Shown: piece by piece, positions 56,969 through 62,854 of the stretch
Layout of the letters: every line of letters starts with the position of its first letter
Position numbering within the stretch: position 1 is the first letter of the stretch
Assembly (NCBI GenBank): GCA_964573405.1
Contig: CAZNJK010000001.1
Coordinates: 29,054 to 93,053 of the forward strand
DNA from: an uncultured Christensenella sp.
GTDB taxonomy: Bacteria > Bacillota > Clostridia > Christensenellales > UBA1242
DNA: 64,000 nucleotides
Reading direction: 5' to 3'
Position numbers and translations under genes: made by a program
Notes under the pieces: generated by a model
Told to the model about the DNA's origin: nothing
What the model saw: the letters and a program-made list of their open reading frames with translations, nothing else
Database searches by the model: none

Positions 56969-57619
56969 ATGTCGTTTTATTCAGGAACACCGCAATGCTG
57001 TTATCCGGGCCCTATCACAGGCAATGCATTGACTGGTCTATGCGAAAAAGCGTGCATTGAAGCCAAAAAAGTATTCGATGCGTGTATGAAGCAAATTCAA
57101 GAAACTGGGGTGGTGGCAACCGTCACCGAATACACTCCCGCTGACCCAACACTGCCACTTACATTTGTGAGTGCCACTTGCACCAGCGGAACAGTGCCCA
57201 TCTCAAACCTAACAATCAACCGCTTCGAAGACCGACCATGTTTTGCTAGAGTCACTGGCGAAGTGGATGTCCCAGTCACTATTACATACACCGACGCAAG
57301 CGGAACAACCGGCACCGCAACAACCACAATAGCAGTGGACGAAGATGTTGTACTATATGTGCCACAACCATCCGTCGTGCCATTTACAGTAGAAGCATTC
57401 GCAACATGTATGGGGGTGGACGGCGACTACACCGGCGAAAACCAATTCACACTTAACGCATGCATCACGCTTATCCTAAAAGTTGTTTCAACCGTCGATA
57501 TGCTTGTGCCAAGTTACGGCTACGCAAAAATCCCGCCTTGCCAAGAATTTACGCAAGATGTGTGTACGGGCTTCTTCGACTTGCCACTGTACCCAACCCA
57601 AAACCCAGTATGCGACTAG
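56969..57619 (+). CDS. Cys/Thr/Pro-rich protein, probable spore coat component
   Basis: CEKACIEAKKVFDAC and many further Cys; strong AAGGAGG RBS; sigma-K-like promoter; terminator 57626-57648. Confidence 0.6.
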   Translation: MSFYSGTPQCCYPGPITGNALTGLCEKACIEAKKVFDACMKQIQETGVVATVTEYTPADPTLPLTFVSATCTSGTVPISNLTINRFEDRPCFARVTGEVDVPVTITYTDASGTTGTATTTIAVDEDVVLYVPQPSVVPFTVEAFATCMGVDGDYTGENQFTLNACITLILKVVSTVDMLVPSYGYAKIPPCQEFTQDVCTGFFDLPLYPTQNPVCD

Positions 57620-57649: not shown

Positions 57650-57828
57650 TCTGAAAAAGTCGGAAATAATCTAAAATCATCGGAAATAATCTAAAATCAT
57701 CGGAAATAATCTGAAAACATCTAAAATCATCTGAAAAGATTTGAGAATGTCGGAAATTGTCGGATAAAAAATACCCGAAATTGTCTAAAATCATCTGAAA
57801 TCATCTGAAATCATCGGAAATTGTCGGA
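57650..57828. repeat. Array of ~17 degenerate 10-bp tandem repeats, consensus C(G/T)(G/A)AAAT(C/A/T)(A/G)T
   Basis: Units in register at 57651-57770, then 57775-57828. Confidence 0.93.
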
Positions 57829-58673: not shown

Positions 58674-58728
58674 TTTACAAAGTTTTGAAATTATAGTATT
58701 ATAATTAAAATTGTGTAGTAGGGGAATA

Positions 58729-59505
58729 ATGGAAAGAAAGAACAAATTACAATCCAATCGTCGCGCCAATGCACGCTATGTGCTTGTTCTTTCTTGCGTG
58801 CTAGTGCTAGCCGTAGTGCTTACTTTTGGCATTACACTATCTTACTTCGGCGGAAATTCAAAAGGCTACTCGGTGGATTTCGTCCTAAAAGCGGGCATCC
58901 AGTTTAAAGCCAACGAATCGGGCTCCGACTACCAGTCCCTTACATTTGATTCCGAATACCTTGTTCCGGGCACAACCCTTAACTCCACTTGCAAACTCAC
59001 CGTTAGTTCACTATCCAGCGACACATCAATTCCGTCAGTCAACGGGCTTCTTAGAGCCAACTTCTCGCTAGATGGCGATATGGCTAACTTCATCGAACTT
59101 AATTACTCCGAGTCGGACCCTATATATGTGTACCTAGGCACGACCGCAGAGAGTATGACCGAAGCAAATAAAGTGGCTCGTCTTGTAAAAGCCCAAGACG
59201 AAGACTCATACTTCTACCTAGTAGGCACGGACTCTACCGAAATTACAAACAACACACTGCTTTATGAAATCCCATGCACTTCAAATAACGGGGAAGTGGG
59301 CTTAATATTCAACCTATCATTCACCGTCCTTAATGAGTACGGCTCCAAATTGTTTAATAACGACTACGCTACAAAAAAAGCCCAACTCAACGCAAACTTC
59401 ACCGTAATACAATCGGAATTCTATTCGGCAGGCAATCCAACGCCGTTGCCACAGACCTACCGCAACGCAAAAGCAGTGTTTGACGATGTAACCAGTTCAA
59501 CTTAA
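58729..59505 (+). CDS. TasA/CalY-like protein 1 with SipW-type signal peptide
   Basis: Basic N-region, hydrophobic helix, ITLSYFGG; C-terminal FTVIQ. Confidence 0.7.
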   Translation: MERKNKLQSNRRANARYVLVLSCVLVLAVVLTFGITLSYFGGNSKGYSVDFVLKAGIQFKANESGSDYQSLTFDSEYLVPGTTLNSTCKLTVSSLSSDTSIPSVNGLLRANFSLDGDMANFIELNYSESDPIYVYLGTTAESMTEANKVARLVKAQDEDSYFYLVGTDSTEITNNTLLYEIPCTSNNGEVGLIFNLSFTVLNEYGSKLFNNDYATKKAQLNANFTVIQSEFYSAGNPTPLPQTYRNAKAVFDDVTSST

Positions 59506-59691
59506 AAAAAATTCAGAAATTGCAATCATTTGTTTTACAATATCTCAAAAATTTGATATTATGTAAGTGTATATATGGTGGTGTAGTGCTACCTAATGTG
59601 TACAATATGCTCTTTTAAAATTTGACAAACCGCTAAATATAGGGATTTTAGCAGTTTATCACGGAAAATTAATAAAAGGTCAGAAGGAAAA

Positions 59692-60429
59692 ATGGATAAA
59701 AAAGAAATCAAAAAAAGGAAAAGAAGACGCAATAGACTTATCAAGACTTTCGTTCTTGTAGTGGCTCTTATTGTTGCCGTAGGTACTACGTTTGGCGTGA
59801 CTATGTCTTACTTCGGTGGAAAATCGGGTACTTCCACTTACGATATGGTCCTAAAAACCGGTCTTTATGTCAACAATGCTAATGCTGGCGGATCGGTGAG
59901 CAAAACCGCTTATGTTGTGCCTAGCCAAGTTATATCTGCTAATTGCCAAGTTAGTGTGAAGTCTGCTTCTAGTAAGACTGGTACGGCAAATACTGACGAT
60001 AGTGCTTCAGACGCACTTATTAGAGCAATCATTACATTCAGTAGCGAAGATGGTGTAAATGCTTCTCTTGGCGACTCAGCAAGTTTCCCAGTTTCGATAG
60101 GCGGTACAACTATAGGAAACTTCGTAAAATACACCGATGATAATTATTATTTGATTGCAAGTGGTACTTCTATTACAGATTCTACTTTAATGTATGTTGT
60201 AAAGACTAGCGAAGGCGAGAAGACATTGTCGTTCGATATGGTCGTAAGCATTCCATCAAGCCTTGACAATTCCGCTAGTGGCAAAAAAGTTACTTTAACA
60301 GTAACCTACCAAGTAATCCAAGCAGATTTCTTTAGCGGTAGTTCGACTGCGGTTAATAAAAGTGTTAAAAATGCAAAAACAATATTTGACGATACAAGCG
60401 TAAGCGGTGACGCATCATATACTGATTAA
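59692..60429 (+). CDS. TasA/CalY-like protein 2 with SipW-type signal peptide
   Basis: VTMSYFGG; YQVIQ; promoter TTTACA, 17 bp, TATTAT at 59534-62; terminator 60449-60484. Confidence 0.72.
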   Translation: MDKKEIKKRKRRRNRLIKTFVLVVALIVAVGTTFGVTMSYFGGKSGTSTYDMVLKTGLYVNNANAGGSVSKTAYVVPSQVISANCQVSVKSASSKTGTANTDDSASDALIRAIITFSSEDGVNASLGDSASFPVSIGGTTIGNFVKYTDDNYYLIASGTSITDSTLMYVVKTSEGEKTLSFDMVVSIPSSLDNSASGKKVTLTVTYQVIQADFFSGSSTAVNKSVKNAKTIFDDTSVSGDASYTD

Positions 60430-60941
60430 TATAATTAAATACTAAATTAAAGAATGTGAGTTATTTGCTTACATTCTTTTTTTTTAAAAAAAATAACAAT
60501 CCTCATTTATATAATCTTAAATAGAGTGATGTATATAGTGAATAATAATATATAATGTGCGATATATTATGTATATGATAAGGCTATATAAATAAAAACC
60601 TATATAATAATATATAACATTATACATAATACATAGTACTATATAATAATACATAGGGTTAATAAGTCAACTTATATTTATTTATATTTATACTTGGGAC
60701 TTGTGTAATTAAAAAAAGTATTTTAAACTCATTAATTTGTCGAAAATACAAATAAAATAAAAAATTTGAAACAAACTATATTAATCAATAAATTAACCAG
60801 CGGGGTAGTAATACTAAAAAAGTATGGTCACTTTGACCATAAAAACATTATAATTTTATAATTTTTTGAAAACCTTTGATTTTTTTGTCAACTTTTTGAA
60901 AGTTTTATAAAAATATGTCAAAATTCGTTTTACAAACTCGT

Positions 60942-61102
60942 GGTCTTTATGGTAATATATAGTTAATAAAAAAAGGAGAATATAAAATGGAAAACAAAAA
61001 CAAAAATAAAAAGAAATTGTTCGCTATCATCGGCGCTTCCGCTCTCGCTTTCGTGCTTACTATCGCTCTTAGCGTCTCTATCACTTTAGCTTATTTCGGT
61101 GG
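60942..61102 (+). repeat. 161-bp inverted repeat, left copy (extended -10, RBS, signal-peptide coding sequence)
   Basis: Identical to the reverse complement of 62415-62575 by manual comparison. Confidence 0.95.
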
Positions 61103-61643
61103 TACTGCTAGTGGAACATCTAGTGTAACATTAGGTGGTTCAGTATTCCTAGGTGATGCAAATAATCAATCAATTACCATGAATAGTGCTTATACTGGTG
61201 CAGTTCCTGGACAAAAAATTGATGTTACTGTAAATGGCACAGTTAAATCATCTTCTACACAAAATGCAGCAGTAATCTTACTTGTAAAAGGCGATGTTAC
61301 TCTTGATAGTACTACAACTGCTTGGACAAAATTAACAAGTGTTAAAGTTACTCAAGGTAGCGATAATTATACAGTATATGTATATGGTACTGAAAATAGC
61401 ATGACAGTAGTTAAAGCAACAGAATCTGGTGCTGAACTTACTCAATTCAAAGGAACTCAAACAGTTTCTACAACATTAGATAATGGTGAGGCAGATAGAG
61501 TAGTTACCGATGCTGCAGTTAGTGTTCAAATGATTGCTATTCAAAATGGTACAGAAAGTACTGACACAGCTAAATCATTCAGTAATTTGAAAGAAATTTT
61601 CCAAACTGTAGGAAACATTACATTTACTAACACTGCTGAATAA
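60987..61643 (+). CDS. TasA/CalY-like protein 3 with SipW-type signal peptide
   Basis: ITLAYFGG; MIAIQ; Thr/Ser-rich; strongly T/A-ending codons; terminator 61670-61705. Confidence 0.78.
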   Translation: MENKNKNKKKLFAIIGASALAFVLTIALSVSITLAYFGGTASGTSSVTLGGSVFLGDANNQSITMNSAYTGAVPGQKIDVTVNGTVKSSSTQNAAVILLVKGDVTLDSTTTAWTKLTSVKVTQGSDNYTVYVYGTENSMTVVKATESGAELTQFKGTQTVSTTLDNGEADRVVTDAAVSVQMIAIQNGTESTDTAKSFSNLKEIFQTVGNITFTNTAE

Positions 61644-61903
61644 TTTATAGTGCTTAATTAATTAAAAATAAAAGTATATTATATTTATATAATATACTTT
61701 TTTTTAATTAATATATAAGGTCTTAAATTTTATTCTTTCGGGGGGATTTTAACATTTTGCTACTCGCAAAATGTTCCGCTTAAAAACTACTCACTTTAAT
61801 TTAATCGCCACAATTAGTTATATCCACTTTAGTATGTTAAATAACATCTATGGCACAAAAAAATACTATTACATTGATTGTAATAGTATTTTTTATTTTA
61901 TAA

Positions 61904-62530
61904 TTAAGCAGCTGTGATTTGAATATTGGCGATATCTTCAACTACTGCTTCATAAGAACTTGCACTAGTTTGAAGTGTTGTACCTTCAGAATTATAAACA
62001 ACTTGTACTCTAACGAATGTTACAGTAACTTTCATAGTAGCACCAGCATCAGTATTAGTAAGTGCTGTACCTACTGTATCAGTATATGTAAGAGTTTTGT
62101 TTACTGCAGTTGTTCCAAGTTGAGTTACAGTACCAGCAGTACCAAGATAGTAAACATCATTACCATCAGCGTCAGTACCATACTTTGTCCAAGCACTATC
62201 GATTGTTGGGTTATTTTTGATACTTGTTCCAGTTGTTTCTACTCCAACTACTGCGAACAATACTGAATCAGTTGTTGAAGCTTCACCTTCTGCTGTAGCA
62301 GTTACAGTATATTTTTGTGTTGGGATAACTGTTTCTGGATTAGCTGTTACTGTAGCAGATTCATTCAACTTAACAGCAGCACCCAATGTAATTGTTGCAT
62401 TACCAGTACTTGTTCCACCGAAATAAGCTAAAGTGATAGAGACGCTAAGAGCGATAGTAAGCACGAAAGCGAGAGCGGAAGCGCCGATGATAGCGAACAA
62501 TTTCTTTTTATTTTTGTTTTTGTTTTCCAT
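61904..62530 (-). CDS. TasA/CalY-like protein 4 with SipW-type signal peptide (first 39 aa identical to protein 3)
   Basis: ITLAYFGG; FVRVQ; terminator 61857-61894. Confidence 0.78.
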   Translation of the reverse strand: MENKNKNKKKLFAIIGASALAFVLTIALSVSITLAYFGGTSTGNATITLGAAVKLNESATVTANPETVIPTQKYTVTATAEGEASTTDSVLFAVVGVETTGTSIKNNPTIDSAWTKYGTDADGNDVYYLGTAGTVTQLGTTAVNKTLTYTDTVGTALTNTDAGATMKVTVTFVRVQVVYNSEGTTLQTSASSYEAVVEDIANIQITAA

Positions 62531-62575
62531 TTTATATTCTCCTTTTTTTATTAACTATATATTACCATAAAGACC
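62415..62575 (-). repeat. 161-bp inverted repeat, right copy
   Basis: Reverse complement of 60942-61102. Confidence 0.95.
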
Positions 62576-62854
62576 TTAAATCTTTGTAAGAAAGGTATGT
62601 CTTTGATTTTTATAACTATTCAAAAATTGGCTTTACAAAGGTTTTGGCGGTGGGGGTAATATGCAAAAGAAGTATTTGTGGCTTAATTTAGCCATTTTTT
62701 GTATTATTTGGGATTTAAGATAAGAATAATTATTCAAAAATATTCAAAAAAATTTATAAATATACCATATTTTATTTGGAAGAAAATTAATTTGAGTGTA
62801 TAATTATAAGTGTATAGGGAAGGTAATTTCGCTATATAATGACATAGGGGAAAA

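Follow-up and report, generated by a model that had tools for sequence, protein, structure and literature searches.

A TasA/BsaA-like fibre-subunit gene cluster with a putatively invertible, hypervariable gene pair in an uncultured Christensenella

The TasA/BsaA fibres serve as the model for protein scaffolds in Gram-positive biofilms, but only a few cultured species have been studied. TasA of Bacillus subtilis polymerises by donor-strand exchange (PMC9674648). A donor-strand-exchange model has also been proposed for BsaA of Clostridium perfringens, which belongs to a widespread family; in BsaA a triad of Asn (in the donor arm), Glu and Lys forms an intermolecular isopeptide bond (PMC11580942). 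AbpA, the archaeal bundling pilus protein of Pyrobaculum calidifontis, forms a TasA-like donor-strand fibre and is processed by an archaeal-type signal peptidase (PMC9245690). The superfamily has already been shown by iterative hidden Markov model (HMM) search to be large (2,172 proteins) and highly divergent in sequence (Kivimaki et al., PMC11580942). Described here is a cluster of four genes, termed g1 to g4, in a 64,000 nucleotide (nt) stretch of DNA (the window) from an uncultured Christensenella sp. (GCA_964573405.1, contig CAZNJK010000001.1, positions 29,054 to 93,053). The source assembly has a size of 1.03 Mb in 26 contigs, is 92 % complete and has a GC content of 35.5 %. The four genes appear to encode TasA/BsaA fibre subunits that are cut by the signal peptidase SipW and assembled by donor-strand exchange, with g3 and g4 as alternative major subunits that are exchanged by inversion. 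The probability of this reading is put at about 0.7.

Inversion of surface-protein genes is known from the sap S-layer locus of Campylobacter fetus, where it is RecA-dependent and involves no dedicated recombinase, and from the piv pilin inversion of Moraxella. The MBA inversions of Ureaplasma are a further system of this type (PMC3047005). No literature linking TasA-type proteins with inversion was found.

The g1–g4 genes are paralogous. In each predicted protein a basic (Lys/Arg-rich) N-terminal end leads into a hydrophobic helix that closes with the motif T-x-(S/A)-Y-F-G-G; the body that follows is beta-rich and has an xIQ strand late in the sequence and a C-terminal helix. In the alignment of g1–g4 the residues T, Y, F, G and G, where the hydrophobic segment ends, are invariant, as are P, G, T, N and T in the body. 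A first-pass annotation of the window had described a cluster of four paralogous genes with these features. The features and coordinates stand, however the genes are not all on one strand; g4 is on the minus strand and is convergent with g3. The late (V/I)Q strand and the terminal helix of that annotation are both recovered, i.e. the Q is invariant over 54 homologues, and the helix is present in the AlphaFold models at amino acid (aa) positions 198–209 of g3 and 244–256 of g1.

The g3 protein has 68 homologues in a set of 5.8 billion proteins, none of which is named or carries a Pfam domain. A search with a profile built from g3-type proteins recovers 1849 cluster representatives at E ≤ 1e-3. 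The family assignment is based on a comparison of the g1–g4 profile (A1) with an alignment of 50 more distant relatives (A4), each of which was also scanned singly. Many of these relatives match established models: TIGR04088, the SipW-dependent-type signal peptide (28/50), TIGR04090, the BsaA family (24/50), the TasA model NF046066 (13/50) and PF12389, Peptidase_M73/camelysin (28/50). The camelysin family name is historical, and no HExxH-type motif of a camelysin-type metalloprotease was seen on reading the four sequences. A1 and A4 align by hhalign at 99.8 % with an E-value of 3.2e-28 over 203 columns, and the A4 HMM matches g1–g4 with E-values of 1e-23 to 2e-35 (g1 1.9e-35, g2 1.6e-35). The A4 consensus is V-G-x-T-L-A-Y-F-x-D...T-M-G...P-G...R-A-K...W...D-G-Y-Y-Y-Y...N...E-A-I-Q-A, where G-x-T-L-A-Y-F-x-D aligns with I-T-L-(A/S)-Y-F-G-G of the window proteins.

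The predicted folds are in accord with this assignment. The AlphaFold2 model of g3, built from 54 sequences, has a mean predicted local distance difference test score (pLDDT) of 85.5 and a predicted template modelling score (pTM) of 0.73. It displays a helix at positions 7–35, a low-confidence segment at 36–52, a beta-sandwich, the terminal helix and a last strand. The flexible segment directly follows the predicted cut, as expected for a donor arm. In a Foldseek search of the PDB the TasA fibre 8aur_A comes first (E-value = 3.4e-4, probability 0.99), ahead of the Pyrobaculum bundling pilus 7ueg_A in second place and of chaperone-usher pilins below it. The g1 model (43 sequences, pLDDT 89.1) likewise has 8aur_A as its first match (E-value = 8.5e-4, probability 0.99). 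The first-pass annotation had made its reading depend on a TasA-like fold and on a SipW in the genome; 8aur_A is the best PDB match of both models, and a SipW was found. The Foldseek result supports, and does not prove, a common fold with TasA.

The basic N-terminal end and the conserved hydrophobic helix superficially resemble a class III signal peptide, and several kinds of pilin are present lower in the Foldseek lists, as would be the case if the proteins were type IV pilin-like or sortase-assembled pilins. The fold and the profile homology point instead to TasA/BsaA, and the chance of a pilin identity is negligible. Type IV pilins were rejected on the basis that the proteins lack a G|F(T/S)LxE motif and that the genome, at 92 % completeness, shows no prepilin peptidase (PF01478); PF01478 was found in 12 of 14 control genomes. 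Sortase pilins were rejected as well, the genome motif scan showing no LPXTG signal and one weak match to a TLxTC sortase motif only.

SipW is encoded at G000:C13:26684-27094, i.e. on contig C13 of the same assembly, and is thus outside of the window, as the first-pass annotation had stated. The protein has a chain length of 160 aa, scores 73.5 bits with TIGR02228 (cut-off 51.85) and is the sole SipW of the genome. In a survey of 25 genomes of the genus, SipW is above the cut-off in 11 of the 13 genomes that have the g1–g4 family, with one other (G014) just below. It is above the cut-off in 1 of the 12 genomes without the family (a 63 %-complete genome) and borderline in one other. In addition, sipW adjoins family members in several genomes of the same genus and in L018, a locus from another family of the order, where the members match TIGR04088 and TIGR04090. 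The sequence T-x-(A/S)-Y-F is invariant in g1–g4 and in the 54 homologues, although the TIGR04088 HMM itself is not matched, and the predicted cut T-L-A|Y-F puts an aromatic residue at P2′. Phe at P2′ is the reported reason that TasA is a substrate of SipW rather than of LepB (PMC10269814). The g1–g4 precursors are predicted from these motifs to be cleaved by SipW.

Codon usage separates the four genes. The codon adaptation index (CAI) was computed with 26 ribosomal-protein genes of the same genome as reference (median 0.765) and ranked among 553 open reading frames (ORFs) of at least 200 aa. The values are 0.811 for g3 (100th percentile), 0.808 for g4 (99th), 0.633 for g2 (91st) and 0.408 for g1 (4th). 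The high-expression codon style that had been noted for proteins 2–4 is thus borne out. On account of its low codon adaptation, g1 is a putative minor or accessory subunit. By this ranking g3 and g4 would be the major structural subunits, with g2 and g1 in accessory roles. This agrees with the earlier division into major (g3/g4) and minor (g1/g2) subunits, however g3 and g4 look like alternative majors and not like simple co-majors.

The earliest description of TasA was as a protein associated with spores, and g1–g4 could belong to a spore coat or appendage and not to biofilm or adhesion fibres of vegetative cells. This ~1 Mb genome encodes Spo0A (G000:C9:29166-29909, 246 bits, above cut-off), and a Cys-rich 216 aa protein without a signal peptide is encoded two genes upstream of the cluster. 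The codon usage of g3 and g4 is however like that of the top vegetative genes and above the ribosomal-protein median, and hypervariable, switchable bodies suit the exposed surface of growing cells. A spore role is considered quite improbable.

The g3 and g4 genes form an inverted pair. Their DNA is the same over 161 bp, beginning 45 nt before the ATG and reaching as far as codon 38. Each 161-bp arm consists of the 45 nt 5′ untranslated region (5′UTR) with its ribosome-binding site (RBS) and of codons 1–38, i.e. from the signal peptide to YFG. The g3 and g4 bodies are only ~31 % identical. The convergent pair recurs in five other related loci, with a perfect repeat of the same limits (from about −40 to the YFG codons), and over the six loci the length of the perfect repeat is 148–169 bp. 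An 87-nt signal-peptide stretch shows 0 nt difference within a genome. Between genomes 4–18 nt differ (10–18 between species; 4 between loci L004 and L023), almost all of them synonymous. The repeat arms are under concerted evolution, which has been repeated in each lineage.

The bodies have a different history. In the body tree the g3 body of the window and the L023 body of the M side (the metallophosphoesterase side, where g3 is located) group with the L004 body of the opposite R side, with support 97/97. Because this clade mixes the sides, body type is not tied to position. A second body grouping is also mixed as to position; it is poorly resolved and is seen mainly in pairwise scores. L023 and L004 are from the same species, a sister species of the source, and their flanks are 97.8 % and 99.1 % identical. 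However the 1.3-kb middle segment, spacer included, aligns solely in reverse orientation, with 76–86 % identity. The synonymous divergence (dS) between the L023 and L004 bodies is ~0.95, and the bodies are for this reason taken as old alleles and not as the product of recent divergence in situ. The ratio of nonsynonymous to synonymous divergence (dN/dS) of the bodies is 0.36–0.77, vs 0.16–0.18 for the neighbouring genes. As no value exceeds 1 and dS is near saturation, no claim of positive selection on the bodies is made.

A canonical promoter (TTTACA-17/18-TATAAT-like) is present on the M side in every locus read and ends at the repeat boundary. In the window it straddles that boundary, with the −35 element outside and the −10 element inside the left arm. 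TTTACA-17-TATAAT is found at the M site in the five relatives with a convergent pair and in the single-gene locus L019. On a consensus reading, the R site has a weaker −10 element and no clear −35 element. Regarding the mechanism, recA is present in the genome, away from the pair, and no dedicated recombinase was found near the pair among the listed ORFs or in the family scans covering 55–64 kb, small ORFs at the window end not being scanned. A RecA-type mechanism is assumed on these two grounds. Exact-pattern scans of JGI metagenome contigs with the 5′UTR of this locus and with conserved signal-peptide DNA gave 0 matches. With the inverted arrangement the cell can probably exchange its variable fibre proteins between the two expression sites; in this genome the segment would invert, and the two promoters are predicted to be of unequal strength.

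The proposed process would be as follows. Each precursor would be exported by Sec, and SipW, an archaeal-type signal peptidase, would cut between the small residue and Tyr in T-x-(A/S)|Y-F-G-G. The freed N-terminal arm, YFGG...V/I-T-L-G, would then act as a donor strand that enters the sandwich of the next subunit, this arm being homologous to the ...T-M-G arm of the relatives. Extracellular or cell-attached fibres would be the result. Donor-strand polymerisation, fibre formation and the roles of the subunits are proposed by analogy with the described systems. In these fibres g3 or g4, with their hypervariable bodies, would make up the bulk as alternative major subunits, and g2 and g1 would serve as nucleator, adaptor or anchor in the manner of TapA and BsaB. 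No conserved N in the arm, nor conserved E or K in the body, corresponding to the BsaA triad was seen in alignments A1 and A2, which were not aligned to BsaA directly, and a non-covalent fibre is expected for this reason. Recombination between the arms would keep the repeats identical and would invert the 1.3-kb segment. Inversion would exchange the body behind the canonical M-side promoter, i.e. between a strong and a weaker site, and the locus would thus be a device for surface variation.

Several observations weigh against this reading. Direct scans of g1–g4 with Pfam and NCBIfam gave no match even at E ≤ 1, including TIGR04088 (the search that the first-pass annotation had proposed), TIGR04090 and PF12389, and PDB sequence searches with three family profiles returned no TasA chain, only noise. 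The Foldseek template modelling scores (TM-scores) are low, 0.26–0.33, in part because a membrane helix remains in the query and an extended donor arm in the target, so that the structural argument is one of best hit and probability and not of tight superposition. The sipW gene is unlinked to the cluster; it is located directly 3′ of a gene for a 2881 aa surface protein on C13, and no family members adjoin it in this genome. Conservation of the signal peptide exceeds that of housekeeping proteins, with 1–3 aa changes in 29 residues vs ~79 % identity for ClpX, which is odd for a segment that is discarded. Lastly, both the M and the R sites bear promoter-like elements, so that a switch at the level of expression is tentative. 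As to the first points, there is no direct model match and yet there is profile homology to relatives that match the models, and by this criterion g1–g4 belong to the known TasA/BsaA superfamily, as a divergent branch that has no model as yet.

Homogenisation of the repeat explains the identity of the signal peptides within a genome; it does not explain their conservation between species. The signal peptide may have a specific role, e.g. stringent recognition by SipW, a retained anchor, or other. This constraint therefore keeps alive the possibility that the N-terminal helix is not cleaved, in which case the proteins would be a type-II membrane-anchored variable coat of monomers or short oligomers, not released and not forming long fibres. 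The N-terminal 38 residues are near-invariant among homologues whose bodies are 30–60 % identical, sipW is not adjacent, TIGR04088 is not matched directly, and BsaA oligomers have been reported to be membrane-anchored (PMC11580942). Opposed to this are the invariant T-x-A|Y-F, which is the TasA-type cleavage motif, the co-occurrence of SipW with the family across the genus, the position of relatives with canonical motifs next to sipW, and the fact that homogenisation of the repeat accounts for part of the conservation. An uncleaved anchor thus appears improbable, and cleavage by SipW is preferred.

The promoter-like elements at both sites would also be expected if the 5′ identity of g3 and g4 were due to gene conversion or selection alone, without any useful inversion, and if the two proteins were co-expressed majors. 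Inversion leaves both proteins unchanged, the scans of 55–64 kb turned up no recombinase, and some relatives have a single g3-type gene, all of which is compatible with this explanation. It does not readily account for two strains of the same species in which the whole segment, spacer included, is reversed, for the shuffling of body types between positions across genomes, or for a conserved canonical promoter on the M side only. The explanation without inversion is accordingly judged unlikely, although it carries real weight, and exchange of g3 and g4 by inversion remains the favoured interpretation.

The features of the locus are listed in Table 1. The ATG at 58729 is the right start of g1 and is preceded by the RBS AGGGGA. 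The first-pass annotation had assigned terminators to the individual genes, and this is correct for g2, g3 and g4, each of which has a hairpin and T-run; no terminator was found 3′ of g1.

Table 1. Genes, repeat arms and candidate expression signals of the g1–g4 locus (positions are those of the window)
Feature	Position	Strand	Length	Basis and remarks
g1	58729-59505	+	258 aa	ORF list; predicted SipW cut S38|Y39
g2	59692-60429	+	245 aa	ORF list; predicted cut S39|Y40
g3	60987-61643	+	218 aa	ORF list; alpha body type; predicted cut A35|Y36
g4	61904-62530	-	208 aa	ORF list; convergent with g3
g1 promoter-like site, TTTACA-17-TATTAT	58674..58702	+		Consensus scan, not evidence of function
g2 promoter-like site, TTTACA-17-TATTAT with TG	59534..59562	+		Consensus scan
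Intrinsic terminator 3′ of g2	60449..60479	+		13-bp stem and T-run
M-site (metallophosphoesterase side) promoter-like site, TTTACA-18-TAATAT	60929..60958	+		Consensus scan; extended −10 TG
Left arm of inverted repeat	60942..61102	+	161 bp	Perfect repeat
g3 terminator	61666..61705	+		AT-rich hairpin (19-nt arms, 95 %) and T-run
g4 terminator	61858..61894	-		Perfect hairpin with 16-nt arms and T-run
Right arm of inverted repeat	62415..62575	-	161 bp	Perfect repeat

The spacer upstream of g3 (60430-60986) has a length of 557 nt and ~27 % GC, and the spacer of the relatives is similarly long. Within it CTATATAATAATATATA occurs two times as a short direct repeat, and another strong promoter-like site, TTGACC-18-TATAAT, is located at 60833-60862. 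An Rfam scan of 57.6–62.9 kb for a riboswitch or leader gave nothing significant.

On one flank the cluster is bordered by clpX, engB, two small membrane proteins, the Cys-rich 216 aa protein and a metallophosphoesterase, and on the other by rsmH and a division/cell-wall cluster. The Cys-rich protein (56969-57619, + strand; CCYPGP...) is conserved and has no Pfam or NCBIfam match. It adjoins the cluster in all relatives with 68–69 % identity, and the orientation of its gene with respect to the metallophosphoesterase gene varies among genomes. Inverted repeats flanking the Cys-rich gene were looked for and none were found. Between these two genes, at 57650-57828, there is a phased array of 10-bp units (TCGGAAATAATCTAAAATCA-type), which begins directly after a terminator-like hairpin. 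Most relatives have an unrelated gene of 258–282 aa between the R-side (or single g3-type) gene and rsmH, and L004, L023, L024 and L025 have an additional gene of 152–161 aa directly before rsmH. Neither gene is present in the comparable gap of the window (62531-62854, 325 nt).

The related records are metagenome-assembled genomes from Hadza and Nepali gut metagenomes, and genome sizes in the genus are 0.7–1.7 Mb. Two more paralogues of the family are encoded outside of the window, both with average CAI. One on C2 (G000:C2:33713-34336) has 207 aa and the more canonical motif T-L-S-Y-F-F-D. The other, on C10 (G000:C10:3438-5075), has 545 aa and consists of a TasA-like N-domain with a 340 aa C-terminal extension; it is possibly a tip or adhesin subunit. 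The 2881 aa protein upstream of sipW (L003 1957-11110) is repeat-rich and has a lipoprotein-like N-terminal end. A different cluster is found in other species of the genus, at L010–L017 (genomes G004, G005, G011, G013–G016 and G019), with three co-directional members of ~260, 360 and 605 aa, and these genomes have extra paralogues adjoining sipW.

In an uncultured human-gut lineage with a reduced genome, this family branch appears to be the surface component with the highest expression. Current models do not see it, and alignments A2 and A6 could seed new HMMs. The hypervariable bodies, the concerted 5′ cassettes and the strain-level inversion indicate a locus that is organised for variation, and it may make antigenic or phase variation of a donor-strand fibre open to test. 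The surface structure may explain the attachment and persistence of these tiny Clostridia. A wider proposal, which is tentative and held at somewhat less than even odds, is that in this ~1-Mb human-gut clade of Clostridia the dominant surface structure is a donor-strand fibre of the TasA type whose genes have the highest codon adaptation in the genome, that its major subunit is switched between two sites by RecA-type inversion via the repeat of 5′UTR and signal peptide, and that the bodies are ancient exchangeable alleles. If so, this would be flip-flop antigenic variation of a kind not described for TasA-like fibres. It would perhaps serve the attachment of a host-dependent or epibiotic cell and the evasion of phage or immunoglobulin A, and the near-invariant signal peptide would have a second, sequence-specific role.

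The first-pass annotation had called the system undescribed. This is too strong as to kind, since TasA/BsaA-like multi-paralogue operons are known in Clostridia (PMC11580942, PMC7395162). The locus architecture, i.e. three subunit classes with an unlinked sipW and a putatively invertible hypervariable major-subunit pair, is new.

The BsaA/BsaB system of C. perfringens (operon sipW-bsaA-bsaB-bsaC, TIGR04090) is, like the window family, a clostridial TasA-like family with SipW-type signals, and it has several paralogues per locus with one major subunit and accessory subunits (PMC11580942, PMC7395162). Unlike BsaA/BsaB, the window proteins fall below TIGR04090, although remote relatives match it, sipW is unlinked, and the cluster lacks a VWA protein (BsaC). 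A further difference is that type IV pilus machinery probably does not aid secretion here, because there is no prepilin peptidase. The major subunit of the window locus is also duplicated as an inverted hypervariable pair.

TasA/TapA of B. subtilis and TasA/CalY of Bacillus cereus (PF12389, NF046066) include the best structural match, the TasA fibre 8aur. The T-x-A|x-F cleavage pattern with an aromatic P2′ is shared (PMC10269814), SipW is present in the window genome, and the window models display a flexible N-terminal arm before the beta-sandwich. TasA/TapA also provides a precedent for a major and an accessory subunit (PMC9674648, PMC10151520). However identity is ~10 %, TM-scores are low and there is no HMM match; G-G of the window proteins replaces x-D after Phe; the cluster is not in an operon with sipW; and there are four to six paralogues in a 1-Mb genome, with a putatively invertible pair. 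AbpA (7ueg) is the second-best structural match for g3 and ranks 13th for g1, but it is archaeal and no sequence similarity to the window proteins was detected.

As in the sap, piv and MBA systems, the paralogous surface genes of the window share a conserved 5′ cassette as an inverted repeat, and inversion would change the body that is expressed. The window genes differ in that they are convergent and have their promoters outside of the invertible segment. Since a separate UTR and signal peptide are present on each arm, both proteins would be intact in either orientation, and the protein family that would be exchanged is a TasA-like one.

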